Assembly (NCBI RefSeq): GCF_003018235.1
Contig: NZ_CP027437.1
DNA: 64,000 bases
DNA from: Escherichia coli
Lineage (GTDB): Bacteria > Pseudomonadota > Gammaproteobacteria > Enterobacterales > Enterobacteriaceae
Strand: one strand, 5' to 3'
Positions 1-18,444 of this stretch are shown in pieces. Below the pieces are notes generated by a model. That model was not told the origin of the DNA. It worked only from the letters and a program-made list of their open reading frames with translations, and searched no databases. The position numbers were made by a program, and so were the translations under genes. Numbering within the stretch: position 1 is the first letter of the stretch; every line of letters starts with the position of its first letter.

Positions 1-863
1 TGTAACCACAGGCTGACTGCGGGTGGCACCAGCGCGGTGACGTTCACCTGATGTTTTTCAATCAATGGGAAACAGAGCGTGGCGCTGGGATCGGCCGCCA
101 GAACGACCGTTCCTCCGGCAAGAAAGACGCCCAGCGATCCCGGCGAACTCATGGCGTAGTTGTGCGCCGCCGGAATCGCGCATAAATAGCGCGTCTGTTG
201 TGTGAACTGACAAATCTCGACGCTACGACGCACGCTGTAGTAGTAGTCATTATGAGTGCGCGGGATCAGCTTCGGTGTGCCGGTGGTGCCGCCGGAAAGC
301 TGGAAATAGGCCACTTCATCAGCAGGTGACGGCGTGGCAGTAAAATCCTCAGCCGGATGGTTAATCGCATCCTGCAAGTTATGCTCACCGCTGTCGTTGT
401 GCAGTTGCACCACGCGAATGGAGGAATGCTCTGCAACAAATGTATTGAGGAAATCATCTCCGCTAAACAGCGCATGCTGGCGATCGGCAATCAGTAACGC
501 CGGTTCAATCTGGCTGGCATAGGCGTTCAGTTCACTACGCTGATGGCTGAACAGCGCCAGCACCGGCGCAACGCCCAGTTTCAGCAGCGCGAAAAAGGTA
601 ATATACAATTCAGCGACGTTACCCAGCTGTACCAGCGCGGTTTCACCAGGTTTAATGCCCTGACGGCGCAAACTACACGCGAGGTTATCCGCCGCCTGAT
701 TCAGCTCCCGATAACTCAACTGCCTCTCGCCGTCGATAACCGCGATGCTGTCACTCGCAGCATGTCGCGTCAGAATGTCGGTCAGCGGCAAATCCTGCCA
801 GTAGCCTTTTTCCCGATAGCGACGGGTAAACTCTTCCGGCCAGCGGGTAAATGGAATGCTCAT
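1..863 (-). CDS. entE: 2,3-dihydroxybenzoate-AMP ligase EntE, N-terminal portion; gene continues past the window start
   Basis: Minus-strand ATG at 861-863, translation begins [12 protein letters not shown]; sits 9 bp downstream of the entC stop as in the entCEBA operon. Not in the ORF track because it runs off the edge. Confidence 0.8.
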
Positions 864-872
864 CCTCGCTCC

Positions 873-2048
<1,176 letters not shown>

Positions 2049-2061
2049 ATCATCCTCCACA

Positions 2062-2097
2062 AAATGATAAAGGCTTTAATAATGATTATCATTTATA
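2062..2097. promoter_or_regulatory. Fur box-like AT-rich dyad in the entC/fepB divergent promoter region
   Basis: Sequence aaaatgataa...ataatgattatcatt resembles the Fur consensus GATAATGATAATCATTATC; lies between divergent iron-regulated genes. Confidence 0.5.
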
Positions 2098-2236
2098 TTT
2101 TCGGTCGCTAACCTAAAAGCAAACGCGCACTATGTCAACTCTTGAGGTAACGCAATCTGCAACTCGGGGTTGCATCTGGTTGTGGTTACAATGAAAATGA
2201 GAAGCATTAACTTCATTAATAACAGGAAGCTGATTT

Positions 2237-3193
2237 GTGAGACTCGTCCCGCTCTACCGCAACGCCCTTCTATTAACAGGACTTTTGCTTTCAGGAATAG
2301 TCGCAGTTCAGGCCGCCGACTGGCCGCGTCAGATTACTGACAGCCGTGGCACTCATTCCCTGGAAAGCCAGCCGCAGCGTATTGTTTCCACCAGCGTCAC
2401 CCTGACCGGCTCACTGCTGGCGATTGACGCTCCAGTGATTGCCAGCGGCGCGACCACGCCAAATAACCGCGTCGCGGATGACCAGGGCTTTTTACGCCAG
2501 TGGAGCAAGGTAGCGAAAGAACGCAAATTGCAACGACTCTATATCGGTGAACCAAGTGCCGAAGCCGTTGCCGCGCAAATGCCGGATCTGATTTTAATTA
2601 GCGCGACCGGCGGCGATTCGGCGCTGGCGCTGTATGATCAGCTTTCCACCATCGCCCCGACGTTAATCATCAATTACGACGACAAAAGCTGGCAGTCGCT
2701 GTTAACGCAACTTGGCGAAATTACCGGGCATGAGAAACAAGCGGCAGAGCGGATTGCACAGTTTGATAAGCAACTGGCGGCGGCGAAAGAGCAAATCAAA
2801 TTACCGCCGCAGCCGGTCACTGCCATTGTCTATACCGCCGCTGCACACAGTGCCAATCTCTGGACGCCGGAATCAGCACAAGGGCAGATGCTGGAACAAC
2901 TCGGCTTTACGTTGGCGAAATTGCCCGCAGGGTTAAATGCCAGCCAAAGCCAGGGTAAGCGTCATGACATCATTCAGCTTGGTGGGGAAAATCTGGCTGC
3001 AGGGTTAAATGGCGAGTCACTATTCCTGTTCGCCGGTGATCAGAAAGATGCCGATGCGATTTATGCTAATCCGCTGCTCGCGCACCTGCCTGCAGTACAA
3101 AACAAGCAGGTTTATGCGCTGGGAACCGAGACGTTCCGTCTGGATTACTACAGCGCCATGCAAGTGCTGGAACGGCTTAAGGCGCTGTTTTAA
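2237..3193 (+). CDS. fepB: ferric enterobactin periplasmic binding protein FepB
   Basis: 318-aa ORF with GTG start and signal peptide; recognised as FepB. Confidence 0.9.
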
Positions 3194-3196
3194 GCA

Positions 3197-4447
3197 TTAA
3201 CTGTCGGACGCTGTCACCTGCGGCGGCGTCTGGCGAAAACGCCGCAACTCCACCAGCACCAGCAATAACAATACGCCGATAATCAACAAACCAAAACCGC
3301 TTGCGCTTGCGGAAGCAACCGGTGTCATCATCGCGCCCAAACCGCCCAGCAGCGCCGCGCCTATGGCATCGCCCGTCACGTTTTGTGCCGTCCACAAACC
3401 GTTAATCCGCCCTAACATCGCTTCCGGGGTTTGCGTTTGCAGCATTGTATATTGCAGCAACGAACTAACCGCGCTCAGCCAGCCGAATAGCGCCAGACAA
3501 ATCACGCCTAAAATCCACATCGGCATCAGGCCAAACAGCCCAATGGCGAGGAACGATCCCAGCGTGGAGAGCAGCATCAATAACCCTGGTCGCGCGCTAT
3601 GTGCCAGCTTCCCGCTGGTTAACGCGCCAATAGCCGCGCCGAGCGGGATCGCCGCATAGAGAAAACCAATCTGTGCCGCCGACATCTGCCAGTTGTCAGC
3701 CAGCGCCGGATACAGTACCCGCACCGCACTCGCCATCGTCAATAAACCACCCAGCAGCGCAATCCCTCCCACCAGCGGGCTGGCGAGCAGAAAACGAAAT
3801 CCTGCCAGTAATGATTTCAACGGATGCTCACGCGGCTGCGGTGGCGGTGGCAACGCCGGAAGGCTTAATAACGGCAGCAAGGTAATAAACGTGCCCGCCG
3901 CCGCCAGCCCGTAGTTCCAGGCTACGCCGCCGGTCGCCAGCAATAAACCGCCAATCATAGGCGAAATCACCGACCCCAGACGCACGGTCAACATGGTGAT
4001 CGCCCCGGCCTGCATTAAGTTTTCACGCCCTACCAGTGCAGGTGTCGCCGCCAGTAGCGCCGTAACGCCAAGCGATGCGAAAAAACCATCCCATAAACCG
4101 AGTAAATAGATTGCCAATAGAGATGGCTCCGGCAGCAGCGCGTTCAGGCACAGTCCAATGAAGCCAATGCCACAGGTGCCGCGCGCCAGCAAAATCACTT
4201 TTTTGCGCTCATAGCGATCCGCCAGCACACCGCCGACCATCAGGCCAACAAACATCGCGCCGCCGGTCAGCGTCACCGAAAGCCCCACCTGCCAGGTAGA
4301 ATGCGTCATCATCTGGATCTGCACTGGTACCGCGACGCCGAGCAAACCCAGAGACACAATTGAGATAAAACGAGCGAGGAATACTGCGCGAAACGCCGGG
4401 TGCGTTTTCAACAGGCTGAGGTTAAGCAGCCAGGATTGTTTATTCAT
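3197..4447 (-). CDS. entS: enterobactin exporter EntS (MFS transporter)
   Basis: 416-aa highly hydrophobic ORF, convergent with fepB and divergent from fepD; recognised as EntS/YbdA. Confidence 0.9.
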
Positions 4448-4520
4448 TACAATGCCTTGCCATCAAATATTTTAAATACCTATTCTTAGGCTGCACATGC
4501 TAACATATCCAAATAAGATC

Positions 4521-4545
4521 GATAACGATAATTAATTTCATTATC
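4521..4545. promoter_or_regulatory. Fur box-like site in the entS/fepD divergent promoter
   Basis: gataacgataattaatttcattatc close to the Fur consensus, just upstream of the fepD start. Confidence 0.5.
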
Positions 4546-4557
4546 ATGGAAGTTCGT

Positions 4558-5562
4558 ATGTCTGGTTCTGTTGCCGTGACACGCGCCATTGCCGTGCCCG
4601 GATTGCTGTTATTACTGATTATCGCGACGGCATTAAGCCTGCTCATTGGGGCAAAATCACTCCCCGCTTCCGTAGTGCTGGAGGCCCTCTCCGGCACCTG
4701 CCAGAGCGCCGACTGCACCATCGTGCTCGACGCGCGGCTGCCGCGCACCCTTGCCGGTTTACTGGCAGGCGGCGCGCTTGGGCTTGCCGGGGCGTTAATG
4801 CAAACCCTCACCCGAAACCCACTTGCCGACCCCGGCTTGCTTGGTGTGAACGCCGGAGCCAGCTTTGCCATTGTGCTGGGTGCGGCGCTGTTTGGTTACT
4901 CATCCGCGCAGGAACAACTGGCGATGGCCTTCGCCGGGGCGCTGGTGGCCTCATTGATTGTTGCCTTTACCGGCAGCCAGGGCGGCGGGCAGTTAAGTCC
5001 GGTGCGTTTAACCCTGGCGGGCGTGGCGCTGGCGGCGGTGCTGGAAGGGCTGACCAGCGGCATCGCCCTGCTTAATCCTGACGTCTACGATCAACTGCGT
5101 TTCTGGCAAGCCGGTTCGCTGGATATTCGCAATCTACATACCTTAAAAGTTGTGCTGATCCCGGTGCTGATCGCCGGAGCAACCGCGCTATTACTGAGCC
5201 GCGCGCTGAACAGTTTAAGCCTCGGCAGTGACACCGCGACGGCGCTGGGCAGTCGCGTGGCGCGCACACAGTTGATTGGTCTGCTGGCGATTACCGTGCT
5301 TTGTGGTAGTGCAACGGCGGTAGTTGGCCCGATTGCCTTTATTGGCCTGATGATGCCGCATATGGCGCGTTGGCTGGTGGGTGCCGATCATCGCTGGTCG
5401 CTGCCCGTCACGCTGCTTGCTACCCCTGCCCTGCTGCTGTTTGCCGATATCATCGGGCGGGTGATTGTGCCCGGCGAACTGCGAGTTTCCGTGGTCAGTG
5501 CGTTTATTGGTGCACCGGTGCTGATCTTCCTCGTGCGACGTAAAACGCGAGGTGGCGCATGA
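4558..5562 (+). CDS. fepD: ferric enterobactin ABC transporter permease FepD
   Basis: Track ORF 4546..5562; start placed at MSGSVAVT by recognition of FepD; polytopic membrane protein. Confidence 0.85.
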   Translation: MSGSVAVTRAIAVPGLLLLLIIATALSLLIGAKSLPASVVLEALSGTCQSADCTIVLDARLPRTLAGLLAGGALGLAGALMQTLTRNPLADPGLLGVNAGASFAIVLGAALFGYSSAQEQLAMAFAGALVASLIVAFTGSQGGGQLSPVRLTLAGVALAAVLEGLTSGIALLNPDVYDQLRFWQAGSLDIRNLHTLKVVLIPVLIAGATALLLSRALNSLSLGSDTATALGSRVARTQLIGLLAITVLCGSATAVVGPIAFIGLMMPHMARWLVGADHRWSLPVTLLATPALLLFADIIGRVIVPGELRVSVVSAFIGAPVLIFLVRRKTRGGA

Positions 5563-6551
5563 TTTACGTCTCTCGCCGATTAATTATCACCTGTTTGCTG
5601 CTGGTTTCCGCCTGTGTGGTTGCAGGTATCTGGGGATTACGCAGCGGTACCATCACGCTGGAAACCTCGCAGATATTCGCCGCGCTGATGGGCGATGCGC
5701 CGCGCAGTATGACGATGGTGGTCACCGAATGGCGTTTACCACGCGTGCTGATGGCGCTGTTGATTGGCGCGGCACTGGGCGTCAGCGGCGCGATTTTTCA
5801 GTCGCTGATGCGTAACCCGCTCGGTAGTCCTGACGTAATGGGCTTTAACACCGGGGCGTGGAGCGGCGTGCTGGTGGCGATGGTGCTGTTTGGTCAGGAC
5901 CTGACGGCTATTGCCCTGGCAGCAATTGTGGGCGGCATTGTCACTTCGCTGCTGGTCTGGCTGCTCGCCTGGCGTAACGGCATCGACACCTTTCGGTTGA
6001 TTATTATTGGTATCGGCATTCGCGCCATGCTGGTGGCCTTTAATACCTGGCTGTTGCTGAAAGCGTCTTTAGAAACGGCGCTAACAGCGGGTTTGTGGAA
6101 TGCCGGATCGCTCAACGGCCTGACGTGGGCAAAAACCTCGCCTTCCGCACCCATCATTATATTGATGCTAATTGCCGCCGCCTTACTGGTACGCCGGATG
6201 CGCTTGCTGGAAATGGGCGATGATACCGCGTGTGCGCTGGGCGTCAGCGTCGAACGTTCGCGTCTGTTAATGATGCTGGTTGCCGTAGTGCTTACCGCTG
6301 CGGCAACAGCGCTTGCCGGGCCGATTTCCTTTATTGCTTTAGTCGCGCCACACATTGCCCGCCGCATTAGCAGCACCGCTCGCTGGGGGCTGACCCAGGC
6401 GGCGCTGTGCGGGGCGTTGTTACTGCTGGCGGCCGATCTCTGCGCCCAACAACTGTTTATGCCGTATCAACTTCCGGTTGGCGTCGTTACCGTCAGCCTC
6501 GGTGGTATTTACCTTATCGTCTTGTTAATTCAGGAGTCTCGCAAAAAATGA
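5559..6551 (+). CDS. fepG: ferric enterobactin ABC transporter permease FepG
   Basis: 330-aa ORF whose start overlaps the fepD stop by 4 nt; recognised as FepG. Confidence 0.9.
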   Translation: MIYVSRRLIITCLLLVSACVVAGIWGLRSGTITLETSQIFAALMGDAPRSMTMVVTEWRLPRVLMALLIGAALGVSGAIFQSLMRNPLGSPDVMGFNTGAWSGVLVAMVLFGQDLTAIALAAIVGGIVTSLLVWLLAWRNGIDTFRLIIIGIGIRAMLVAFNTWLLLKASLETALTAGLWNAGSLNGLTWAKTSPSAPIIILMLIAAALLVRRMRLLEMGDDTACALGVSVERSRLLMMLVAVVLTAAATALAGPISFIALVAPHIARRISSTARWGLTQAALCGALLLLAADLCAQQLFMPYQLPVGVVTVSLGGIYLIVLLIQESRKK

Positions 6552-7363
6552 CCGAATCAGTAGCCCGTTTGCGTGGCGAACAGTTAACCCTCGGATATGG
6601 CAAATATACCGTTGCGGAAAATCTGACTGTAGAAATTCCTGATGGTCACTTCACGGCAATTATCGGGCCAAATGGCTGCGGTAAATCCACGTTACTGCGT
6701 ACTTTAAGCCGCCTGATGACGCCTGCTCACGGGCATGTCTGGCTGGATGGTGAGCACATTCAACATTACGCCAGTAAAGAGGTTGCACGCCGGATTGGCC
6801 TGTTGGCGCAAAATGCTACCACGCCGGGCGATATCACCGTGCAGGAGCTGGTGGCGCGTGGACGTTACCCGCATCAACCGCTGTTTACCCGCTGGCGCAA
6901 AGAGGATGAAGAAGCGGTAACGAAAGCGATGCAGGCCACGGGAATCACTCATCTGGCAGATCAAAGCGTGGATACCCTTTCTGGCGGACAACGCCAGCGA
7001 GCGTGGATAGCAATGGTGCTGGCCCAGGAAACGGCAATTATGCTGCTCGATGAACCAACGACCTGGCTGGATATCAGTCATCAGATTGATTTGCTGGAAC
7101 TGTTAAGCGAACTGAACCGCGAGAAAGGCTATACCCTGGCGGCGGTGCTGCACGATCTTAATCAGGCCTGTCGTTACGCCAGCCATTTGATTGCATTGCG
7201 GGAAGGGAAAATTGTTGCTCAGGGAGCGCCGAAGGAGATTGTCACTGCTGAATTGATCGAGCGCATTTATGGTCTGCGCTGCATGATTATTGACGACCCG
7301 GTTGCCGGAACGCCGCTCGTGGTGCCGCTCGGACGAACGGCACCTTCAACCGCAAATAGTTAA
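6548..7363 (+). CDS. fepC: ferric enterobactin ABC transporter ATPase FepC
   Basis: ATG at 6548 overlaps the fepG stop; Walker A motif GPNGCGKST and ABC signature LSGGQRQR in the translation. Confidence 0.9.
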   Translation: MTESVARLRGEQLTLGYGKYTVAENLTVEIPDGHFTAIIGPNGCGKSTLLRTLSRLMTPAHGHVWLDGEHIQHYASKEVARRIGLLAQNATTPGDITVQELVARGRYPHQPLFTRWRKEDEEAVTKAMQATGITHLADQSVDTLSGGQRQRAWIAMVLAQETAIMLLDEPTTWLDISHQIDLLELLSELNREKGYTLAAVLHDLNQACRYASHLIALREGKIVAQGAPKEIVTAELIERIYGLRCMIIDDPVAGTPLVVPLGRTAPSTANS

Positions 7364-8493
7364 ACTAAGTGGTCTGCTATCATGGCATCCTGTTTTCTGG
7401 ATGCCATCGCATAGCGCAACAGCACGCCACCACAAGCCACCATCCCGCCGATCATCGCAGAAAGGATCACAATAATCGCCTTACCCGGACCGTCTTTTTT
7501 CACTGGCAATGACGGGCTTAACTGATATTTAAACGGCGTAAAATTCACATCGTTGATATTTGCTTTTGTTAACTGCTCAACAAGATACTGACGATTACGT
7601 AATTCACCGTTCAGTTCCGCAACGTTAGTAACCGCTTTTTCAATTTCCAGTTTGCGTTCAATACCGTCTGCGCCGAGAGAAATAGAGAAATCGGGGTCAT
7701 CTTTAACGGCCTGACCATTACTGTAAACGGGCTTTTTAATTCCTGCCGCGTTGGCAATGTCGAGTGAATAATTGAGGCGCTGAATGTTTGCATCAAGTTG
7801 ATTTTTCGTTTTAATGCGATCCTGAGCCAGTTTTTCTTTTTCAAACTGGGTTTTGATCTCCAGTTTATTACGGACGTTTTCTATCGACTCTTTCACCACC
7901 AACGCAGAGATATAATCGATATACCCGCTCAAAACGGTCTGCGCCTCTTCACTGGTTGGCGCGGTAAAACTTAGCGTCCAGGAGTTATACAGTGACGGTT
8001 CATCTTTTTTCTTACTGGCATTGTCATCAACCGCTTTCATTTTTTCGCTCAATGCGACAATTGCGCGATGCAAATCCAGCTCGTCGATTTTCGCCTCTTT
8101 TAATTGGTCCATCACATAAGGTGTTGAGCGCAGGTACTCTTCCAGCAAGCTAACCGACTGAAACTTCTTGATAAACAGGTTAAATGCTTCTGTACGATCA
8201 ATTTTGATATCCAGATCCAGCACACGAAGCTTAGTGAATGTTTTCTCAAGCGCCTGCCACTGAACAGGTTCTGGAGGCGTGACAACCGCCGCGCTGGTCC
8301 ATTTTTGCGGCAGGATGAAAGAGATCAGTAAACCTGCGCAGGCAAACGCAAAAACGACCGCCATGACCGTTTTTTTGGCCCGCCATAAAACTTCGATTAG
8401 ATTAAGTAAATCAATTTCATTATTACTGGGCGACGCCAGAGGATACTCGGGAAAATGAGTGTCACTTCCCTGTTTAATATTCAGTGATGACAT
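7360..8493 (-). CDS. fepE: polysaccharide co-polymerase family protein FepE
   Basis: Track ORF 7360..8613; start trimmed to MSSLNIKQG (ATG complement at 8491-8493) by recognition of FepE; stop overlaps the fepC stop (convergent). Confidence 0.85.
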   Translation of the reverse strand: MSSLNIKQGSDTHFPEYPLASPSNNEIDLLNLIEVLWRAKKTVMAVVFAFACAGLLISFILPQKWTSAAVVTPPEPVQWQALEKTFTKLRVLDLDIKIDRTEAFNLFIKKFQSVSLLEEYLRSTPYVMDQLKEAKIDELDLHRAIVALSEKMKAVDDNASKKKDEPSLYNSWTLSFTAPTSEEAQTVLSGYIDYISALVVKESIENVRNKLEIKTQFEKEKLAQDRIKTKNQLDANIQRLNYSLDIANAAGIKKPVYSNGQAVKDDPDFSISLGADGIERKLEIEKAVTNVAELNGELRNRQYLVEQLTKANINDVNFTPFKYQLSPSLPVKKDGPGKAIIVILSAMIGGMVACGGVLLRYAMASRKQDAMIADHLV

Positions 8494-8663
8494 GGGGTAT
8501 AACCTGAAAATGAGTCCAATAAGAGTAAATCTCCACGGCCCCCACTCTACCAGTTGGTGAGATTTATCCGAAGCTGAAGTTTGTAAATTACTCCCACTGA
8601 ATGCAACATTCACTCTATTTCAGAGAAACACCCACCAAATTTATAAATTAAACAAATGATAAA

Positions 8664-8690
8664 CCCATAATTATTTTCTGTAATTATGGG
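8664..8690 (-). terminator. perfect AT-rich palindrome downstream of entF (possible terminator or operator)
   Basis: cccataatta ttttctg taattatggg is a 10-bp perfect inverted repeat followed by a T-rich run on the minus strand. Confidence 0.3.
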
Positions 8691-8708
8691 TTTATAGATA
8701 ATATAAAT

Positions 8709-11700
8709 TTACTTATTTAGCGTCGCACGAATAATCGGCCCAATTTTTTCAAACGCCACCGGAGAGATAATATCCACATGCGCACAATCCTGACGATAGA
8801 TATCCAGCTCAGCAATCCACGGTGCCCAGGCCTGTTCAGGACTCATACCTTCCTGAAGCGTGCGTTCGGCAACAAATAGCGTCGCTTTACCATCAAACGG
8901 TACGCTATGAGCTGTCGTCAGCAGGCGCACAGCATCAGCGTAGTTGCCTTCAATGGTGGTAAACAACTCCGTTGAAGTACTTCCCTGCTGTGCCGCCAGG
9001 AAGGCTTCGCGCTCGCGGTTAATCTCCGCCAGCACTTCCGGGTCCAGACCATTAGCCTCTTTTTCCTGCCAGTTTTGCGTTTCTGGCGGCCAGGTATCCA
9101 GCAAGCCAAGAAATGCCACCTGTTCGCCACGGGCACGCAGTCGCGCCGCAATGCCCTGCGCCAGCGTACCGCCCAGCGAATACCCCAGCAGGTAATAAGG
9201 GCCGTGCGGTTGTTGTTCAAGTAACGTTGCCAGATGCGCTTCGCAGACTTCATCCAGGTTTGCCGCGGTCTGCATGGGGCCATGAGGGCGCGGCGACTGA
9301 ATGCCAATAATCGACCATTGTGGATCGAGATAACGCGAAAGCACGCTAAACTGCCAGGCAAAACCGGAGGCCGGATGGAAACAAAACAGCGTCGGGCCAT
9401 TACCTTCACGCAACGGCAGAATGGTTTCGAATCCCATGCGCTGGGTGCTGTCTTCTTCACCATCAATAATCGTTGCCAGTTTGGCGACAGTTGACGCGAC
9501 CATCACCTGCCCCGGCGTCACCTGGCGGGTAAACTGCCGACTTAACTGCGCAGCCAGTTTCATTGCCAGTAGCGAATGACCGCCAAGCGCAAAGAAATCA
9601 GCATCGGCATCCTGCACGTCACAACCCAGCAACGACGAGAATGCCGCGGCGATAATCGTTTCACTGCCCGCTTTCGGCGCACGCCCCGGCGCTTGTGCCT
9701 TCAGTTCAGGCAACGGTAAGGCTTTGCGATCCAGCTTGCCGTTGGCGCTAAGCGGCAACTGCGGAAGTTGCAGCAGAACCACGGGCACCATATGCGGTGG
9801 CAATGTTTCGCGCAACTGCGCCTGCAATGCAGTGGTATCCAGCGGCAGGCCTGATTGCGACACCAGATACCCAACCAACTGACGCGCATCGCCTCCCGTT
9901 GCGGCAGCCTGGTTAATGACGCAGGCGTGGGTAACGGCCTGTTCGACATCCGGCAGTGCCTGCATCACGCGATCGATTTCGCCCAGTTCAATACGCTGCC
10001 CGCGAATTTTTAGCTGATCGTCACTGCGCCCGAGGTACTCCACCGCGCCGTTATCCAGCCAGCGGGCAACGTCTCCGGTACGGTACATCCGTTCGCCAGG
10101 GGCAAAAGGATCGGCAATAAAGCGGCTGGCGGTCAGATCGGGTCGTCCAAGATACCCCTGCGCCAGTTGAATACCGGTGAGATAGAGATCTCCCGCCACA
10201 CCCGGCGGCACCGGATGCATCATCGCATCAAGAATACGCAGGCCCGTATTCCACACCGGATAACCAATCGGCACACTGCTGCCGCGCACCTGTGCCAGTT
10301 CCTCGCCAAAAGCCGGATACCAGCTGACATCTACCGCCGCTTCCGTCGGGCCATATAAATTATGCAACGGCGCGCTGGTTAACTGTTGCCATTCGCGGCA
10401 TAAATCAGCGGGTAAGGCCTCACCACTACAGAAAACCTGTTTCAACGTCGCGCAATTCTGACGAGCGGTTTGCGGAGTCAGCGATGCAACAAATGCCGCC
10501 AGCATCGACGGCACAAAGTGCGTGGTCGTTACACCATATTCGGCAAAGAATTGCTGCATAGCGAGCGGGTCGCGGTGCGCTTCCGGTTCAGCCATCACCA
10601 GTTTAGCCCCGGCAATAAACGGCCAGAAAAACTCCCACACCGAGACATCAAAACTGCACGGCGTTTTTTGGGCAACGACATCTTCGCCTGTAAGCGGGTA
10701 GTGGTTTTGCATCCAAAGCAGGCGGTTAACGATAGCCGTCTGCCCGACCATTACCCCTTTTGGTCTGCCGGTGGAACCTGAGGTGAAGATGATATAAGCC
10801 GTGTGGTGCGGTTGTGAAAGCTGCAGCGGCGCACTGCCCTGCGGTGTAAGCGGGGCGTTATAGCAAAGGTTGGTTAAATCTGGAACATCGGCAAAGCGCG
10901 GCAGTTGATCGTCGGTGGTGATTAACAGCGACGGACGCGCATCTTCCAGCATCATTTTCAAGCGATCGTCCGGATAACCGGTATCCAGCGGTAGCCAGGC
11001 CGCGCCAGCTTCAACTATCGCATGTAGCGCCAGGGTCAAAAAGACCGAGCGCGGTAGCGCCACCGCCACGCTGTCCCCTGGTTTAACGCCGCGCTCACGC
11101 AGCAGATTCGCCAGCGCCACCACCTGCTCGCGCATTTCCCGATAGCTGAACTGGTAACGCGCATCTGCCAGCGCCGGAGCATGCGGCGTTTTTGCCGCTT
11201 GTTCTGCCACCAGCGCGCTAAGCGTGGTTTCTGGAATCTCAACCTGAGTGGCGTTGATCTGCGCCAGCTGCGCATACTCACCTGGCAGCATAATATCGAC
11301 ATCGCCGCACAACAGCGCCGGATCCGCGGCGAACTGGGCAATCAGCATTTTCAGGCGTTCAGCATGCTGGATTAACGTTGGCTCATCGTAACGCTGTTTA
11401 TTGGCGAGGATCTCAATACTCAAATCACCGTGTTCATCCGGGAACAGTGCCAGTTCAAGGTCATTAACCGGACCGGTTGCTAGTGTATGGGTTTGCGCCT
11501 GAACACCAGGAATATCCAGTTGGTAATCAAATACCTTGATATTGAGTACCGGACCAAACAGCGGTTCATCACCTGCCGCTCGCCCGCTGTCACGGACAAT
11601 TTGTTCGGCATCGTAACGTTGATGACGACGCATTTTTTTCAGTTGTGCTGCCAGTCGGGTTGCCAGTTGCGGCAGCGTTTCTTGCGCCGCAATGTGAATA

Positions 11701-12590
11701 CCCAACGGTAAAACGTTGAGCACGGGTCCGGTAGCCGTCAGCGCCGCCGAGCCCAGTCGACGCATAAAGATAAATCCGGCAGCGTAGTCCATGCGGTTGC
11801 ACAATCGCCCCAGCCACAAAGCCGTCAGCGCAAGGGCTAAATCGGTACGCTGCACACCTGAAAGTTGCGTAGCCAGCTGGCGGAATTCCCCGTCGGTAAA
11901 TTCCAGTTTCAGGCGCAAAATATCTGCCGAAGCGCTGCGCCCCGGTAAAGGTGCCGGAGAAAGTGACGCGGGCGGTGGCAGTTGACGACGCTGTTCCGCC
12001 CAGAATGCCGCATCACGCTGCCAGGCTTCGCTTTCGCGGTATTGCTGGTACTCTTCCACTACATCAGCGAAAGGCGTAAACGGCGAAGCAGGCGTTGGTT
12101 CGCCACGCAGCAATGCGCAGTAAATATTGGCGATCTGGCGTGTAATGGCCGGGAAACTGAAGCCATCGACCAGCAAATGGTGATAACGCTGATACCAGTA
12201 CCAGCGGTTATCCGCCACCTGTATCAGTTGATGAAAGACCAGTGGTTTACCACTATCGACGCGCAGATCTTGTTGCAAATCCGCCTGCATTAATGCCCGC
12301 GCAGTACCGTGCGGATCAATGTTGGTTCGCAGGTCGATAATTTCTGGCAGTTCGAACGTCTGCGCATCATCGACCCACTGCCAGACTTCGCCGTTATCTT
12401 CCGTAAAACGCATCCGCAACGTATCTGCTTGCGCTAGTCCGGCAACCACCGCGCGGGCCAGTAATGGCGCATCAACCTCTCCGGTTAACTCAACGTAATG
12501 CGCCACGCTCCAGGCGGAGGGTAAATCCGACAGTTTTTCTGCCATCCAGATGCCGGGCTGTGCGGCGACCAAAGGTAAATGCTGGCTCAT
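8709..12590 (-). CDS. entF: enterobactin non-ribosomal peptide synthetase EntF
   Basis: 1293-aa ORF with adenylation-domain motifs (YIIFTSGSTGRPKGV) and a C-terminal thioesterase GYSLGG motif. Confidence 0.95.
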   Translation of the reverse strand: MSQHLPLVAAQPGIWMAEKLSDLPSAWSVAHYVELTGEVDAPLLARAVVAGLAQADTLRMRFTEDNGEVWQWVDDAQTFELPEIIDLRTNIDPHGTARALMQADLQQDLRVDSGKPLVFHQLIQVADNRWYWYQRYHHLLVDGFSFPAITRQIANIYCALLRGEPTPASPFTPFADVVEEYQQYRESEAWQRDAAFWAEQRRQLPPPASLSPAPLPGRSASADILRLKLEFTDGEFRQLATQLSGVQRTDLALALTALWLGRLCNRMDYAAGFIFMRRLGSAALTATGPVLNVLPLGIHIAAQETLPQLATRLAAQLKKMRRHQRYDAEQIVRDSGRAAGDEPLFGPVLNIKVFDYQLDIPGVQAQTHTLATGPVNDLELALFPDEHGDLSIEILANKQRYDEPTLIQHAERLKMLIAQFAADPALLCGDVDIMLPGEYAQLAQINATQVEIPETTLSALVAEQAAKTPHAPALADARYQFSYREMREQVVALANLLRERGVKPGDSVAVALPRSVFLTLALHAIVEAGAAWLPLDTGYPDDRLKMMLEDARPSLLITTDDQLPRFADVPDLTNLCYNAPLTPQGSAPLQLSQPHHTAYIIFTSGSTGRPKGVMVGQTAIVNRLLWMQNHYPLTGEDVVAQKTPCSFDVSVWEFFWPFIAGAKLVMAEPEAHRDPLAMQQFFAEYGVTTTHFVPSMLAAFVASLTPQTARQNCATLKQVFCSGEALPADLCREWQQLTSAPLHNLYGPTEAAVDVSWYPAFGEELAQVRGSSVPIGYPVWNTGLRILDAMMHPVPPGVAGDLYLTGIQLAQGYLGRPDLTASRFIADPFAPGERMYRTGDVARWLDNGAVEYLGRSDDQLKIRGQRIELGEIDRVMQALPDVEQAVTHACVINQAAATGGDARQLVGYLVSQSGLPLDTTALQAQLRETLPPHMVPVVLLQLPQLPLSANGKLDRKALPLPELKAQAPGRAPKAGSETIIAAAFSSLLGCDVQDADADFFALGGHSLLAMKLAAQLSRQFTRQVTPGQVMVASTVAKLATIIDGEEDSTQRMGFETILPLREGNGPTLFCFHPASGFAWQFSVLSRYLDPQWSIIGIQSPRPHGPMQTAANLDEVCEAHLATLLEQQPHGPYYLLGYSLGGTLAQGIAARLRARGEQVAFLGLLDTWPPETQNWQEKEANGLDPEVLAEINREREAFLAAQQGSTSTELFTTIEGNYADAVRLLTTAHSVPFDGKATLFVAERTLQEGMSPEQAWAPWIAELDIYRQDCAHVDIISPVAFEKIGPIIRATLNK

Positions 12591-12805
12591 TGTGCCTCCT
12601 GCAACTGGGTGAAATTCGCCGGTGTCAGAGTACGCCAGTGGGCTTCAAGCCACTGCTGGCAGGACGCCTGTGACTGCGGCTGACACACAACGTCCCAGCC
12701 TGCCGGTAAGGCGCATTGTTGCGGCCACAGACTGAATTGCCCCTGCGCATTGCGCAAAATGTAAAACACGCCCTGCGGATCATCGAAGGGATTACTGAAT
12801 GCCAT
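12587..12805 (-). CDS. ybdZ: MbtH-like protein YbdZ
   Basis: Small ORF overlapping the entF start; translation MAFSNPFDDPQG with conserved tryptophans; start taken at the second Met of the track ORF. Confidence 0.8.
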   Translation of the reverse strand: MAFSNPFDDPQGVFYILRNAQGQFSLWPQQCALPAGWDVVCQPQSQASCQQWLEAHWRTLTPANFTQLQEAQ

Positions 12806-12807
12806 AT

Positions 12808-14010
12808 TCAACTCCTGTCATGGAAAAGTGGTTGCCAGAGGTCGATTAGCCCCTGCATCAAGCCACCGCGCCAACAAAGCGCATCATGTCCGCCGTCAAC
12901 CTGACGCCAGAAAATGGATTCTTTTATGGGGTGTAATTGCGCATACAGCGCCTGATTGGCCCGCATGATCATCGGCTCGCGAATACCCGCTTCCAGCACA
13001 ATGCGCAGACCTTCGGCGCTAACTTCACCAGCTTTAAGTTGCTCAAGTAAAACACCTTCTTGCTGCCCGCCCCGATGCGGCCACCAGTACGATCCTGACT
13101 GGCTTAATACACAGCCAAAGCGTTCAGGCCAGTGCAGTCCGGCATACAGCGCGGAAAGCCCACCAAAACTCTGCCCGGCGACCACGGTGCGATCGGCGCG
13201 ATCGCTAAAAGGGGCAATAGCTTTCACCAGGGGTAATAACTCTTGCTGTACTGCCAGCCAGAAATCCGCATTACACGGCAGTTCGTGGGCGCGGTGCGTG
13301 GTGTCGATAGCGTCGATCAACACATACACGGCGGGAGGAAGTTGCCGACGATGGGTCAGCGAAGTCAGCACAGGCCAGACGGGCATACTTTGCGCCCAAA
13401 ATTCGCCATCGAGCAAAACTGCCAGCGGGCGTTCTTCTGCTGTTACATCGCCGGTGGTAAAAATCCATACACGACGTGAATTTTTCAGCCGTTCACTTTT
13501 CCAGATAATTTCTTTGACAGGTATTTCTGGCGCTTGCGGACAATCCCATCCCGGTTGCAGAGGCGCTTGCGGCATTTCGAGTGCAGAAACAGCGTGCCCT
13601 CGCCCGCCTTTCCAGCTTTGTGGATTCAGCGGATCGGCTATCGCCTGGGGTAATAGTTTTCGCCAGCCTTCGCGTAATTCGAGGCGATCAGGGGATGGTG
13701 CAGAAAAAATGTCATCGCGTTCGGTGGGAATAAAGCAGTAGCTGCCGCGCCAGTTGGCATTGAGTTGTGTCGTCCACTGCCAGACATCAGTACCTGCAAT
13801 TCGCTGCATCGACTGGGGCTGGCTGTTCTGATGGTGATCGGTCACACCAGTGATGTAGACCCATACCCGCTTTATCGTCGAGTATTCTTCAGAACCTTGG
13901 GGATCACGCCACCAGAAAGTGACCTCAAACATTTCGTCATTCAGACGCTGCCATTCCGGGCCATGTTTCGACTGCCACCAGCTCTCACTTCCTACTTTTA
14001 ACGCCGTCAC
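12808..14010 (-). CDS. fes: enterochelin esterase Fes
   Basis: 400-aa ORF with esterase GQSFGG motif, first gene of the fes-ybdZ-entF-fepE transcription unit. Confidence 0.9.
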   Translation of the reverse strand: MTALKVGSESWWQSKHGPEWQRLNDEMFEVTFWWRDPQGSEEYSTIKRVWVYITGVTDHHQNSQPQSMQRIAGTDVWQWTTQLNANWRGSYCFIPTERDDIFSAPSPDRLELREGWRKLLPQAIADPLNPQSWKGGRGHAVSALEMPQAPLQPGWDCPQAPEIPVKEIIWKSERLKNSRRVWIFTTGDVTAEERPLAVLLDGEFWAQSMPVWPVLTSLTHRRQLPPAVYVLIDAIDTTHRAHELPCNADFWLAVQQELLPLVKAIAPFSDRADRTVVAGQSFGGLSALYAGLHWPERFGCVLSQSGSYWWPHRGGQQEGVLLEQLKAGEVSAEGLRIVLEAGIREPMIMRANQALYAQLHPIKESIFWRQVDGGHDALCWRGGLMQGLIDLWQPLFHDRS

Positions 14011-14062
14011 ACCATAACCCCATGTTTACTGTGCAATTTTTCATTGATTGCAGAAATATATT

Positions 14063-14096
14063 GATAATATTATTGATAACTATTTGCATTTGCAAT
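14063..14096. promoter_or_regulatory. Fur box-like sites in the fes/fepA divergent promoter
   Basis: gataatattattgataactatttgcatttgcaatag contains overlapping Fur-consensus-like hexamers. Confidence 0.5.
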
Positions 14097-14252
14097 AGCG
14101 TAATGGCGCGCCGTGGGAAGCGCGGACATTAATTAACCAACTGCACTGCGTGTCTTTCAGGATCAAAGGTTTTCGCGGTAGCGGGGTGCGTCGTATTGAT
14201 GACGACCATGCCTGACAGTTGCAATTCGTGGCAAAAATGCAGGAATAAAACA

Positions 14253-16493
14253 ATGAACAAGAAGATTCATTCCCTGGCCTTGTTGGTCAATCTGGGGATT
14301 TATGGGGTAGCACAGGCACAAGAGCCAACCGATACTCCTGTTTCACATGACGATACCATTGTCGTTACCGCCGCCGAGCAGAACTTGCAGGCGCCTGGCG
14401 TTTCGACCATCACCGCAGATGAAATCCGCAAAAACCCCGTTGCCCGCGATGTCTCGGAGATCATCCGTACCATGCCAGGCGTTAACCTGACCGGTAACTC
14501 CACCAGTGGTCAGCGTGGGAATAACCGACAGATTGATATTCGCGGTATGGGTCCGGAAAACACGCTGATTTTGATTGACGGCAAGCCGGTAAGCAGCCGT
14601 AACTCGGTGCGTCAGGGCTGGCGTGGCGAGCGCGATACCCGTGGTGATACCTCCTGGGTGCCACCTGAAATGATTGAACGTATTGAAGTTCTGCGTGGTC
14701 CGGCAGCTGCGCGTTATGGCAACGGCGCGGCGGGCGGCGTGGTTAACATCATTACCAAAAAAGGCAGTGGTGAGTGGCACGGCTCCTGGGACGCATATTT
14801 CAATGCGCCAGAACATAAAGAGGAAGGTGCCACTAAACGCACCAACTTCAGCCTGACCGGTCCGCTGGGCGACGAATTCAGCTTCCGCTTGTATGGCAAC
14901 CTCGACAAAACCCAGGCTGACGCGTGGGATATCAACCAGGGCCATCAGTCCGCGCGTGCCGGAACGTATGCCACGACGTTACCAGCCGGGCGCGAAGGGG
15001 TAATTAACAAAGATATTAATGGCGTGGTGCGCTGGGACTTCGCGCCATTGCAATCGCTGGAACTGGAAGCAGGTTACAGCCGCCAGGGCAACCTGTATGC
15101 GGGCGACACCCAGAACACCAACTCCGATTCCTATACCCGCTCGAAATATGGCGATGAAACCAACCGTCTGTATCGCCAGAACTACTCGCTGACCTGGAAC
15201 GGCGGCTGGGATAACGGAGTGACCACCAGCAACTGGGTGCAGTACGAACACACCCGTAACTCGCGTATTCCGGAAGGTCTGGCGGGCGGTACCGAAGGGA
15301 AATTTAACGAAAAAGCGACACAGGATTTCGTCGATATCGATCTTGATGACGTGATGCTGCACAGCGAAGTTAACCTGCCGATTGATTTCCTCGTTAACCA
15401 GACGCTGACGCTGGGTACGGAGTGGAATCAGCAGCGGATGAAGGATTTAAGTTCCAACACCCAGGCGCTCACTGGGACGAATACCGGCGGTGCTATTGAT
15501 GGTGTGAGTGCGACAGACCGTAGCCCATATTCAAAAGCAGAAATTTTCTCGCTGTTTGCCGAAAACAATATGGAGCTGACTGACAGCACCATCGTAACGC
15601 CTGGGCTGCGTTTCGATCATCACAGCATTGTTGGCAATAACTGGAGTCCGGCGCTGAACATCTCGCAAGGTTTAGGTGATGACTTCACTCTGAAAATGGG
15701 CATTGCCCGTGCTTATAAAGCGCCGAGTCTGTACCAGACTAACCCAAACTACATTCTCTATAGTAAAGGTCAGGGCTGCTATGCCAGCGCGGGCGGCTGC
15801 TATCTGCAAGGTAATGATGACCTGAAAGCGGAAACCAGTATTAACAAAGAGATTGGTCTGGAGTTCAAGCGCGACGGCTGGCTGGCGGGCGTCACCTGGT
15901 TCCGTAACGATTATCGCAATAAGATTGAAGCGGGCTATGTGGCTGTAGGGCAAAACGCAGTCGGCACCGATCTCTATCAGTGGGATAACGTACCGAAAGC
16001 GGTGGTTGAAGGTCTGGAAGGATCGCTAAACGTACCGGTTAGCGAAACGGTGATGTGGACCAATAACATCACTTATATGCTGAAGAGTGAAAACAAAACC
16101 ACGGGCGACCGTTTGTCGATCATCCCGGAGTATACGTTGAACTCAACGCTGAGCTGGCAGGCACGGGAAGATTTGTCGATGCAAACAACCTTCACCTGGT
16201 ACGGCAAGCAGCAGCCGAAGAAGTACAACTATAAAGGTCAGCCAGCGGTTGGACCGGAAACCAAAGAAATCAGCCCGTACAGCATTGTTGGCCTGAGCGC
16301 GACCTGGGATGTGACGAAGAATGTCAGTCTGACCGGCGGCGTGGACAACCTGTTCGACAAACGTTTGTGGCGTGCGGGTAATGCCCAGACCACGGGCGAT
16401 CTGGCAGGAGCCAACTATATCGCCGGTGCCGGGGCGTATACCTATAACGAGCCGGGACGTACGTGGTATATGAGCATTAATACTCACTTCTGA
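14253..16493 (+). CDS. fepA: TonB-dependent ferric enterobactin outer membrane receptor FepA
   Basis: Track ORF 14196..16493; start trimmed to MNKKIHSLALL (ATG 14253); TonB box DTIVVTA; C-terminal F as in beta-barrel proteins. Confidence 0.9.
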   Translation: MNKKIHSLALLVNLGIYGVAQAQEPTDTPVSHDDTIVVTAAEQNLQAPGVSTITADEIRKNPVARDVSEIIRTMPGVNLTGNSTSGQRGNNRQIDIRGMGPENTLILIDGKPVSSRNSVRQGWRGERDTRGDTSWVPPEMIERIEVLRGPAAARYGNGAAGGVVNIITKKGSGEWHGSWDAYFNAPEHKEEGATKRTNFSLTGPLGDEFSFRLYGNLDKTQADAWDINQGHQSARAGTYATTLPAGREGVINKDINGVVRWDFAPLQSLELEAGYSRQGNLYAGDTQNTNSDSYTRSKYGDETNRLYRQNYSLTWNGGWDNGVTTSNWVQYEHTRNSRIPEGLAGGTEGKFNEKATQDFVDIDLDDVMLHSEVNLPIDFLVNQTLTLGTEWNQQRMKDLSSNTQALTGTNTGGAIDGVSATDRSPYSKAEIFSLFAENNMELTDSTIVTPGLRFDHHSIVGNNWSPALNISQGLGDDFTLKMGIARAYKAPSLYQTNPNYILYSKGQGCYASAGGCYLQGNDDLKAETSINKEIGLEFKRDGWLAGVTWFRNDYRNKIEAGYVAVGQNAVGTDLYQWDNVPKAVVEGLEGSLNVPVSETVMWTNNITYMLKSENKTTGDRLSIIPEYTLNSTLSWQAREDLSMQTTFTWYGKQQPKKYNYKGQPAVGPETKEISPYSIVGLSATWDVTKNVSLTGGVDNLFDKRLWRAGNAQTTGDLAGANYIAGAGAYTYNEPGRTWYMSINTHF

Positions 16494-16530
16494 TGCTAAC
16501 GTCAGATTGTTGACAAAGTGCGCGTAGTTC

Positions 16531-16630
16531 ATGCCGGATGCGGCGTGAACGCCTTATCCGGCCTACAAAAATCTTGCCAATTCAATATATTGCAGGACCA
16601 CGTAGGCCTGATAAGCGTAGCGCATCAGGC
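16531..16630. repeat. pair of REP-like palindromic units between fepA and entD
   Basis: gccggatgcggcgtgaacgccttatccggcctac and gtaggcctgataagcgtagcgcatcaggc are classic enterobacterial REP sequences in opposite orientation. Confidence 0.5.
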
Positions 16631-16667
16631 AGTTTTGCGTTTGTCAACATTCTCTAATATGGTCGAC

Positions 16668-17288
16668 ATGAAAACTACGCATACCGCCCTCCCCTTTGCC
16701 GGAAATACGCTGCATTTTGTTAAGTTCGATCCGGCGAGTTTTCGCGAGCAGGATTTACTCTGGCTGCCACACTACGCACAACTGCAACACGCTGGACGTA
16801 AACGTAAAACAGAGCATTTAGCTGGACGAATCGCTGCTGTTTATGCCTTGCGGGAATATGACTATAAATATGTGCCCGCTATCGGCGAGCTACGCCAACC
16901 TGTGTGGCCTGCGGAGGTATACGGCAGTATTAGCCACTGCGGGACTACGGCATTAGCCGTGGTATCTCGTCAACCGATTGGCATTGATATCGAAGAGATT
17001 TTCTCTGTACAAACCGCAAGAGAATTGACAGACAACATTATTACACCAGCAGAACACGAGCGACTCGCAGAATGCGGTTTAACCTTTTCTCTGGCGCTAA
17101 CACTGGCATTTTCCGCCAAAGAGAGCGCATTTAAGGCATCGGAGAGACAAACTGATGCAGGATTTCTGGATTATCAGATAATTAGCTTGAATAAACAGCA
17201 GATCATCATTCGACTAGAGGATGAGCAGTTTGCTGTGCACTGGCAGATAAAAGAAAAGATAGTCATAACGCTGTGCCAACACGATTAA
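16668..17288 (+). CDS. entD: phosphopantetheinyl transferase EntD
   Basis: Track ORF 16518..17288 reads through the REP units; start trimmed to MKTTHTALPF (ATG 16668) by recognition of EntD. Confidence 0.85.
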   Translation: MKTTHTALPFAGNTLHFVKFDPASFREQDLLWLPHYAQLQHAGRKRKTEHLAGRIAAVYALREYDYKYVPAIGELRQPVWPAEVYGSISHCGTTALAVVSRQPIGIDIEEIFSVQTARELTDNIITPAEHERLAECGLTFSLALTLAFSAKESAFKASERQTDAGFLDYQIISLNKQQIIIRLEDEQFAVHWQIKEKIVITLCQHD

Positions 17289-17437: not shown

Positions 17438-17590
17438 CTACTTCTTCGGTTCGTAAGCGAGAACAGCCTTAAACTCAATATTACGTTCCTTCACCGTAAA
17501 CTCACACAGCGAGTCGCGGACCAGAAGCGTAAATCCCAGCACCGTTAAACACAGCACTATGACTGCCACAAGGGCATATTTCGTCAGCAT
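17438..17590 (-). CDS. hokE: Hok-family membrane toxin, copy 1 (one substitution versus HokE: G25R)
   Basis: 50 codons [50 protein letters not shown]; overlapped out of frame by the mok-like ORF 17502..17735. Confidence 0.8.
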
Positions 17591-17735
17591 GTTTATATTG
17601 CCTCCATGCGAAGAAGGGACTACCATCCGAGTTGTTGAGGTTCGGAGTGGCAGCCCCAGGATTGATAGAAATATCTCCTGGGGCTTCATCTTTCCAGATC
17701 TCAGAGTTAACCTGAAACCGGAAAGCTTCAGGCAC
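17502..17735 (-). CDS. Mok-like overlapping reading frame of hok copy 1
   Basis: 77-aa ORF in a different frame covering most of hok, the arrangement known for hok/sok loci. Confidence 0.5.
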
Positions 17736-17940
17736 CCGCAGCTATCTTACCTTTCCTCAACAAAATAGCTGTTTATTTATACAGCAAATCCTGTTTCGGA
17801 CTTCTGTTGGCAAAACTGATCATTGCCCTTAAAACGACATCGCCCGCAGCCATTGCTGACCGCGGGCGAAAGTGTAAAACAGGTGCCTTACCACCCTGAC
17901 CTGACAACCGGATATGCGGGGATTGCTCCCCGCACAACGG

Positions 17941-18093
17941 CTACTTCTTCGGTTCGTAAGCGAGAACAGCCCTGAACTCAATATTACGTTCGTTCACCGT
18001 AAACTCACACAGCGAGTCTCCGACCAGAAGCGTAAATCCCAGCACCGTTAAACACAGCACTATGACTGCCACAAGGGCATATTTCGTCAGCAT
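17941..18093 (-). CDS. Hok-family toxin, copy 2 (K34N and K41R versus HokE)
   Basis: [50 protein letters not shown]; mok-like ORF 18005..18193 overlaps. Confidence 0.75.
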
Positions 18094-18193
18094 GTTTATA
18101 TTGCCTCCATGCGAAGAAGGGACTACCATCCAAATTGTTCAGGTTTGGGTAGGTAGCCCCAGGGTTGATAGAAATATCGTCCTGGGGCTTCAT
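18005..18193 (-). CDS. Mok-like overlapping frame of hok copy 2 (N-terminus differs from copy 1)
   Basis: 62-aa overlapping [16 protein letters not shown]... Confidence 0.4.
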
Positions 18194-18444
18194 CTTTCCA
18201 GACCTCAGAGTTAACCTGAAACCGGAAAGCTTCAGGCACCCGCTGTTATCTTACCCTTCCTCAGCAAAATAGCTGTTTATTTATACAGTGAATCCTGTTT
18301 CGGACTTCTGTTGGCAAAACTGATCATTGCCCTTAAAACGACATCGCCCGCAGCCATTGCTGACCGCGGGCGAAAGTGTAAAACAGGTGCCTTACCACCC
18401 TGACCTGACAACCGGATATGCGGGGATTACTCCCCGCACAACGG

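Follow-up and report, generated by a model that had tools for sequence, protein, structure and literature searches.

Fur operators of the enterobactin cluster and the fepB leader in a divergent Escherichia coli lineage

Does the enterobactin (ent-fep-fes) cluster of a divergent E. coli lineage keep the Fur operators footprinted in K-12, or is the AT-rich DNA between its divergent genes Fur-like by composition only? The sites examined here are almost certainly, on sequence grounds, the canonical Fur operators of the E. coli enterobactin regulon. They are already known from a well-studied system, and as they are base-for-base identical to the footprinted K-12 sites, the sequence-only reading that pointed to them was correct but ordinary.

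Gene content and gene junctions

Positions 1–17288 of the window (the whole 64,000-nt stretch of DNA analysed) hold the ent/fep cluster of E. coli, recognised because they are 98% identical to annotated E. coli genomes and have their genes in the same order; with respect to K-12 the orientation is inverted. From entC to entD there are twelve genes, all colinear and intact and each as long as in K-12. The first, entC (873–2048, minus strand), was placed from the ORF list, the sequence and the K-12 and O169:H41 annotations; position 2049 is the first base beyond its start codon, i.e., the place where the stretch singled out earlier begins. The others agree with K-12 in length, start and stop: fepB (2237–3193, plus), entS (3197–4447, minus), fepD, fepG and fepC (4558–5562, 5559–6551 and 6548–7363, plus), fepE, entF, ybdZ and fes (7360–8493, 8709–12590, 12587–12805 and 12808–14010, minus), and fepA and entD (14253–16493 and 16668–17288, plus). 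Their nucleotide identity to K-12 is 96.6–97.9% from fepB to fepE and 93.9–97.8% from entF to entD, with zero internal stops in either group, and coding regions overall differ from K-12 by 2–6%. The cluster had been said to appear complete; the window can bear this out for these twelve genes only, as entE begins at 863 and is truncated by the 5' end of the window, and entB, entA and entH lie beyond it. An Rfam search of 2049–14252 returned zero RNA families.

Within the operons, fepD/fepG, fepG/fepC, entF/ybdZ and ybdZ/fes had been described as overlapping or nearly abutting, and so they are, exactly as in the K-12 annotation: three junctions are ATGA overlaps (fepD stop/fepG start at 5559–5562 and fepG stop/fepC start at 6548–6551 on the plus strand, ybdZ stop/entF start at 12587–12590 on the minus strand), and in the fourth (12803–12810, minus strand) a 2-nt gap separates the fes stop TGA (12810–12808) from the ybdZ ATG (12805–12803). 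Every downstream start has a Shine-Dalgarno-like AGGAG/GAGG 6–11 nt upstream, inside the preceding gene, and all four junctions thereby combine the two sequence features expected of coupled genes, an overlap or few-nt gap and an internal ribosome-binding site. Translational coupling can reasonably be inferred from the ATGA overlaps: terminating ribosomes would probably reinitiate at them and at the 2-nt gap, which would help to keep the FepDGC transporter subunits, and likewise YbdZ and EntF, in proportion. It is quite possible, though not the reading we favour, that the overlaps reflect neutral genome compaction and that each downstream gene is translated independently; each start does possess a Shine-Dalgarno motif of its own, and no junction class is commoner in bacterial operons than the 4-bp ATGA overlap, so that an overlap by itself is no sign of coupling. 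However, the junctions are exactly kept between the window and K-12 despite 2–4% gene divergence, and it is established that the proteins act together at fixed ratios, FepD, FepG and FepC as an ABC transporter and the MbtH-like YbdZ with EntF; both points speak for coupling.

Fur boxes in the divergent control regions

K-12 Fur DNase I footprints are compiled in Table 3 of Chen et al. 2007 (PMC2189734), where the bidirectional Fur regions are credited to Brickman et al. 1990 (fepB-entC), Hunt et al. 1994 and Escolar et al. 1998 (fepA-fes) and Christoffersen et al. 2001 (fepD-entS/ybdA). Fur-like AT-rich dyads had been reported at 2062..2097, 4521..4545 and 14063..14096, with a matrix scan and a comparison with these footprints proposed as checks. 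We ran both. For the scan, a 19-bp palindromic matrix was trained on eight non-ent K-12 footprints only (fur, tonB, cir, sodA, fecA, fecI, fhuF1 and fhuF2); footprint coordinates were carried from NC_000913.2 to.3 by offsets whose one check was that 12/12 regions fell on Fur-box-like sequence. Training sites score 13.7–22.8 bits, or 8.3–20.4 when each is left out in turn.

The dyads are where they had been placed, and they exceed chance by both matrix and shuffles. The three best matches of the 64 kb are 4521–4539 (19.3 bits), 2078–2096 (18.6) and 2193–2211 (18.6), and the seventh is 14069–14087 in fes/fepA (13.8). The ent sites score equal to or above training sites from other E. coli iron genes. 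Whole-window dinucleotide shuffles lead one to expect 0.02 matches of at least 18 bits and 0.75 of at least 13.7 bits, against three and seven observed; when each region was shuffled by itself, its observed maximum was reached in 0/2000 (entC-fepB), 0.15% (entS-fepD) and 1.3% (fes-fepA) of shuffles. Only four 19-mers of the window lie within four mismatches of GATAATGATWATCATTATC, and 4/4 are in these control regions, with three operators at 3–4 mismatches and fes/fepA at 6–7. The matches are phased by 6 bp (2060/2072/2078/2084, 2187/2193, 4515/4521/4527/4533 and 14057/14063/14069/14075), and their numbers (entC four, fepB two, entS-fepD four, fes-fepA four) equal the walker counts in Table 3 of PMC2189734. 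All four operators therefore reach known-site level by consensus or matrix score and form overlapping 6-bp-phased arrays, like the Fur boxes of fhuF, fecI, sodA, fur, cirA, tonB and fecA, which share the 19-bp palindromic GATAATGATWATCATTATC-type motif in overlapping arrays; unlike those, the entS/fepD and fes/fepA arrays are each single and serve two divergent promoters. Two further matches were set aside as Fur operators: 8451–8469 (15.2 bits, 5' end of fepE) is at chance level, with 0.27 matches of at least 15 bits expected per window, and 8660–8678 (12.0 bits) lies inside the 3' arm of a terminator-like hairpin of entF.

The footprint comparison places the three dyads inside exact K-12 matches, and three of the four K-12 ent footprints are matched at 100%, the fourth (fepB) over 23/31 bp. 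The shared entS/fepD (fepDGC) operator (4508–4576) is identical to the 69-bp K-12 fepD-entS footprint; its core (4521–4545, GATAACGATAATTAATTTCATTATC) holds two strong boxes 6 bp apart that score 19.3 and 14.2 bits, the second of which (4527–4545) has three mismatches to the consensus. Among 15 sequences from Escherichia, Citrobacter and Pluralibacter, 4512–4534 and 4538–4546 are invariant and 4452–4490 is variable, and the entS/fepD region is at least 99% identical in 5278/5416 E. coli genomes. The shared fes/fepA operator (14055–14102) is identical to the 48-bp K-12 fepA-fes footprint, and its phased boxes at 14057, 14063, 14069 and 14075 score 9.0, 5.4, 13.8 and 10.7 bits. Since 64 kb would by chance hold 0.75 matches at the 13.8-bit level, this site rests mainly on footprint identity and on clustering, three matches of at least 9 bits occurring in 0.15% of local shuffles. 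Sequence identity to K-12 extends over 14011–14196; three substitutions in the fepA leader (14197, 14207 and 14225) lie downstream of the operator.

The entC (entCEBAH) operator (2054–2102) is an exact match to the 49-bp K-12 entC footprint. Its core box (2078–2096, AATAATGATTATCATTTAT) has 6-bp-phased neighbours at 2060, 2072 and 2084, the four scoring 18.6/13.7/9.7/7.0 bits. The 20-mer 2077–2096 recurs exactly in the entC-fepB regions of Escherichia, Citrobacter, Enterobacter, Yokenella and Pluralibacter, an invariance that follows from its use as the search pattern. A single site had been proposed for entC/fepB, and while the entC site stands, a second, separately footprinted operator that ties the second-best score had been missed: the fepB operator (2187–2217, core 2193–2211, GAAAATGAGAAGCATTAAC), supported by K-12 footprint match and matrix. 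Its counterpart in PMC5020551 is 'Fur box 1', and conservation of ATGAAAATGAGAAGCATTA within it is 90% or more in five genera.

Could such sites be mere AT-rich promoter DNA, e.g., UP-element/-10-like or H-NS-type tracts that look Fur-like by composition and have no Fur function? The intergenic regions are 58–69% A+T, and the matrix does give 12–15-bit matches in other AT-rich parts (e.g., 44864, 44992, 46931 and 8451). Yet shuffles that keep the composition of each intergenic region almost never match the observed scores, Fur footprints exist in K-12 for the very same sequences, and cross-genus conservation is limited to the boxes and the promoter hexamers; we consider this explanation extremely improbable, and retain that of genuine Fur operators.

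The putative entC and fepB promoters and the fepB leader

Scanned for a simple sigma-70 consensus, the three intergenic regions gave weak matches only, no commoner than in shuffles, and these did not include the promoters described here. The scan being uninformative, the entC and fepB hexamers were placed by cross-genus conservation in an entC-fepB alignment of 21 sequences (the window and 20 from five genera). The putative entC promoter (2110–2138, minus strand) consists of a -35 TTGACA (2138–2133), a 17-nt spacer and a -10 TAGGTT (2115–2110); both hexamers lie within blocks at least 90% conserved in the 21 sequences, and the sequence between them is variable. Transcription would start near 2103, which would put the Fur operator just downstream of +1, and Fur box 2 of K-12 is likewise downstream of its +1/-10/-35 (PMC5020551). 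The putative fepB promoter (2170–2198, plus strand) has a -35 TTGCAT (2170–2175), a 17-nt spacer and a -10 GAAAAT (2193–2198), within blocks conserved in five genera (2169–2176 and 2191–2209), and we infer a start near 2205; the consensus scan passed over it because its -35 matches at only 3/6 positions. Relative to starts predicted from the conserved hexamers, the boxes would span +1..+50 of entC and -13..+7 of fepB. In Citrobacter, Enterobacter, Yokenella, Pluralibacter, E. albertii and E. whittamii, the entC-fepB and entS-fepD regions keep the Fur boxes, the predicted -35/-10 hexamers and a short fepB leader, whereas the spacer DNA between these elements is divergent.

In K-12, a 187-bp repeat-element insertion that the window lacks directly follows the base equivalent to 2209, in the fepB leader. 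It begins inside the fepB footprint (31 bp), the first 23 bp of which are exact in the window (2187–2209) and the last 8 bp of which differ because of it, and the entire fepB 5' leader thus differs from that of the window. Of complete E. coli genomes, about 49% have the short leader and 51% the insertion; the insertion is absent from most other Enterobacteriaceae examined, although at this point of the leader insertions are also seen in E. whittamii and in one genome of C. amalonaticus. The short leader is the ancestral form, and the long leader of K-12 is a derived repeat-element insertion. The element is MITE-like, contains a GC-rich imperfect palindrome with 41-nt arms, and may resemble BoxC, a family documented as 56 bp in 32 copies.

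It might be argued that fepB regulation here is materially unlike that of K-12, the short leader altering Fur occupancy, mRNA stability or translation, as the 5' UTR is shorter by about 187 nt of structured sequence and the Fur-protected DNA differs in its distal 8 bp. The insertion junction would lie at about +4/+5 of the transcript, within the K-12 footprint, and the insertion contains the long-armed palindrome; we nevertheless find the proposal doubtful, given that the fepB core box has a predicted score of 18.6 bits in both alleles, that the putative -35 and -10 are both in sequence common to the two, and that, the short leader being ancestral and common, K-12 would be the variant and not this strain. 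That the element itself may alter the stability or translation of fepB mRNA or the distal contacts of Fur, and so split fepB regulation within the species, is a suggestion that we regard as rather unlikely.

Predicted iron regulation and conservation of the operators

In K-12, expression from the fepB/entC region is bidirectional and controlled by iron (PMC5020551). Under iron sufficiency, Fe2+-Fur dimers would bind the arrays of overlapping, 6-bp-phased GATAAT-like hexamers, which are predicted to overlap or directly follow the -35/-10/+1 of four control units, i.e., entCEBAH, fepB, the back-to-back entS/fepDGC and the back-to-back fes-ybdZ-entF(-fepE)/fepA(-entD). Bound Fur would exclude RNA polymerase; under iron scarcity it would depart and all four units would be derepressed together. 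Fur occupancy and an iron response in this strain are thus expected from its DNA. The cluster had been described as regulated as in K-12, and this holds insofar as the operators are identical to footprinted K-12 DNA and the control regions agree in gene order, phased-box numbers and gene junctions, but not for the leader and footprint edge of fepB, where the 187-bp insertion makes the difference.

Among matching E. coli genomes, 98% have the 161-bp control region and 97% the 110-bp one at 99% identity or more, whereas none reaches 99% over the 12.6-kb cluster. Over the cluster, no complete E. coli genome is more than about 98% identical to this lineage, yet its Fur operators are unchanged, which makes the region a reliable conserved anchor beside the variable hok/sok locus. 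Operators that are 100% identical to K-12 next to genes at 94–98% point to strong purifying selection on operator DNA. The significance beyond annotation is small, and the polymorphism of the fepB leader is the one useful by-product and the only non-textbook element. The long K-12 leader is found in only about half of E. coli, which calls for caution in extrapolating K-12 fepB regulation. If the insertion does affect fepB, the classic K-12 account with its long structured leader would hold for no more than half of the species, and the periplasmic capacity to bind ferric enterobactin would be a heritable difference between strains.

The enterobactin cluster and its surroundings

An ORF list and a megablast search of 5,426 complete E. 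coli genomes placed the enterobactin cluster at positions 1-17288 of the window, colinear with annotated genomes and inverted with respect to the reference strain K-12. It comprises a partial entE (start at 863, running past the window start), entC (873-2048, minus strand), fepB (2237-3193, plus), entS (3197-4447, minus), fepD, fepG and fepC (4558-5562, 5559-6551 and 6548-7363, all plus), fepE, entF, ybdZ and fes (7360-8493, 8709-12590, 12587-12805 and 12808-14010, all minus), fepA (14253-16493, plus) and entD (16668-17288, plus). All 12 complete genes (entC to entD) match K-12 in length and in start and stop codons, are free of internal stops and share 93.9-97.9% nucleotide identity with it. 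Cluster identity was at most 98.1% to any complete E. coli genome (<99% in all) and that of the adjoining 24 kb was 97.4-98.4% among the matches listed; since complete E. coli genomes reach only ~98.1-98.4% identity over window positions 1-41000, the source is a somewhat divergent Escherichia lineage.

Just beyond entD, three tandem sok antitoxin RNA matches on the minus strand (17582-17737, 18085-18241 and 18589-18743; Rfam RF01794, 84 bits each) mark a triplicated hok/sok locus, where K-12 instead carries hokE plus IS186. The fepA-entD intergenic region consists of REP-like palindromes and holds a CssrF sRNA match (Rfam ES036, 42 bits, 16568-16609, plus strand).

Fur operators of the divergent promoters

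Between the base next to the entC start codon and the base preceding the fepA start codon (2049-14252), the sequence-only reading had placed sites resembling the box of the iron repressor Fur at 2062-2097 (entC/fepB), 4521-4545 (entS/fepD) and 14063-14096 (fes/fepA). To compare them with DNA protected by Fur in K-12, published footprint coordinates were converted to NC_000913.3 by fixed offsets, the only check on these being that every region falls on Fur-box-like sequence. Each of the three intervals lies within one footprint that is an exact string match to K-12, i.e., entC (2054-2102), fepD-entS (4508-4576) and fepA-fes (14055-14102), and the fepB footprint (2187-2217) is the same as in K-12 over its first 23 bp; the DNase I footprints measure 49, 69, 48 and 31 bp, respectively (Chen et al. 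2007, PMC2189734, Table 3). The single site proposed for entC/fepB is thus real but incomplete, as K-12 has two separate Fur operators there (PMC2189734, PMC5020551), and the second, that of fepB (core 2193-2211), is also present in the window with an equal second-best matrix score. Alignment with K-12 and the best genome match showed 100% identity throughout the entS-fepD intergenic region, over aligned columns 1-181 of entC-fepB and as far as 14196 in fes-fepA, followed by three substitutions in the fepA leader. The operator regions are 100% identical to K-12, despite 94-98% identity in neighbouring genes.

A 19-bp palindromic Fur matrix was trained on non-ent sites only, namely eight K-12 footprints (fur, tonB, cir, sodA, fecA, fecI and two fhuF sites), a choice made against circularity. 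The three best matches of the 64-kb window were 4521-4539 (19.3 bits), 2193-2211 and 2078-2096 (18.6 bits each), and the best in fes/fepA, 14069-14087, ranked seventh (13.8 bits). Three matches of at least 18 bits were observed vs 0.02 from dinucleotide shuffles of the whole window, and the observed maximum was reached in 0% (entC-fepB), 0.15% (entS-fepD) and 1.3% (fes-fepA) of 2000 per-region shuffles. Only four 19-mers in the window lie within four mismatches of the classical consensus, all of them in these control regions, and every region carries a 6-bp-phased matrix series (entC 4, fepB 2, entS-fepD 4, fes-fepA 4), the same numbers, region by region, as the sequence walkers of Chen et al. 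(PMC2189734). Given these scores, shuffles, consensus matches and phasing, the sites cannot be regarded as falling below threshold.

Elsewhere, a 15.2-bit match in the 5' part of fepE (8451-8469) was rejected as being at chance level (0.27 matches of at least 15 bits expected per window), and two sites with six mismatches, 6 bp apart, at 8400-8424 are not separable from chance. Moderate matches (12-15 bits) clustered at ~43300-47000 (43782, 44690, 44864, 44992 and 46931) probably reflect the base composition of an AT-rich segment.

Conservation, putative promoters and the fepB leader

Among matching E. coli genomes, identity of at least 99% was found in 5322 of 5416 for the entC-fepB core (161 bp), in 5278 of 5416 for entS-fepD (110 bp) and in 4199 of 5414 for the operator half of fes-fepA. 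Scanning one genome per species with the 20-mer TAATAATGATTATCATTTAT yielded entC-fepB regions of Escherichia albertii, E. whittamii, many Citrobacter, Enterobacter, Yokenella and Pluralibacter. In an alignment of 21 sequences, conservation of at least 90% was confined to seven elements: the start and ribosome-binding site of entC (2044-2058), the operator of that gene (2066-2071 and 2077-2101, where the 20-mer used for the search is necessarily invariant), GCTAACCTAA (2107-2116), TGTCAAC (2133-2139), GTTGCATC (2169-2176), ATGAAAATGAGAAGCATTA (2191-2209) and the fepB ribosome-binding site (2222-2227). Among 15 entS-fepD sequences from three genera, 4493-4499, 4501-4507, 4512-4534 and 4538-4546 are invariant and 4452-4490 is variable.

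We read a putative entC promoter (TTGACA, 17-nt spacer, TAGGTT, minus strand) with +1 near 2103 and a putative fepB promoter (TTGCAT, 17-nt spacer, GAAAAT) with +1 near 2205. These predicted start sites, ~102 bp apart, agree with the separation of 103 bp that Brickman et al. reportedly found in 1990. The fepB box would then span -10 to +7 and the entC box would lie directly downstream of +1, a position that fits PMC5020551. Sigma-70 scans of the entS/fepD and fes/fepA intergenic regions did not resolve promoters.

The regulation as in K-12 that was also proposed from the sequence is matched by the operator sequences, but not by the fepB leader, which in K-12 (L002, the K-12 locus, ~16538-16724) has an extra 187 bp immediately after window position 2209. 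This MITE-like insertion ends in imperfect 24-nt inverted repeats and contains a GC-rich palindrome with 41-nt arms, and the median E. coli genome has parts of it at six places; presumably it resembles the BoxC repeats. The existence of that family is documented in the literature. Of 5426 complete E. coli genomes, 2755 carry the long allele; the short one, that of the window, is ancestral, since E. albertii, Citrobacter and Enterobacter also have it. The insertion junction lies in the final 8 bp of the fepB footprint of K-12, at a predicted ~+4/+5 of the mRNA, giving a predicted leader of ~31 nt in the window vs ~218 nt in K-12, and the core Fur-box scores 18.6 bits in both alleles. E. whittamii (locus L034, from ~5430) and one C. 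amalonaticus genome (locus L041, from ~3015) have insertions at the same point, directly after GAGAAGCATTA; these may be independent of that in K-12 or related to it, and the position suggests an insertion hotspot.

Gene junctions and the probable iron-dependent control

The overlapping or nearly abutting genes described within the operons were borne out: ATGA overlaps join fepD/fepG (5559-5562), fepG/fepC (6548-6551) and ybdZ/entF (12587-12590), fes and ybdZ are 2 nt apart, and all four junctions are as in K-12, each with a Shine-Dalgarno-like motif for the downstream start within the upstream gene. No other type of junction is as common in bacterial operons, and translational coupling is plausible both between subunits of a single transporter and between YbdZ, which is MbtH-like, and EntF. 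The convergent stop regions of fepC/fepE overlap by 4 bp (7360-7363) and the fepB/entS stops are 3 nt apart (3193-3197), both as in K-12, so there is no space for separate terminators. Directly after the entF stop, a minus-strand hairpin (8650-8695) with a perfect 15-bp AT-rich stem (ATAAACCCATAATTA ... TAATTATGGGTTTAT, then CATTTGTTT) resembles a terminator separating entF from fepE; a 12-bit Fur match in its 3' arm (8660-8678) is probably spurious.

The initial observation is confirmed, and its interpretation is correct in its core, subject to three changes: there are four operators, the fepB leader differs from that of K-12, and the completeness proposed for the cluster holds in the window for the genes from entC to entD, entE being cut by the window start. 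The Fur operators of the enterobactin cluster are a known, textbook example, and by sequence those of the window are identical to footprinted operators, matrix-matched, phased and conserved; nothing in the window suggests a departure from the standard model. Following established knowledge of Fur, Fe2+-Fur dimers would polymerise along the hexamer arrays of the ent operators and keep RNA polymerase off the divergent promoters, and iron starvation would release them.
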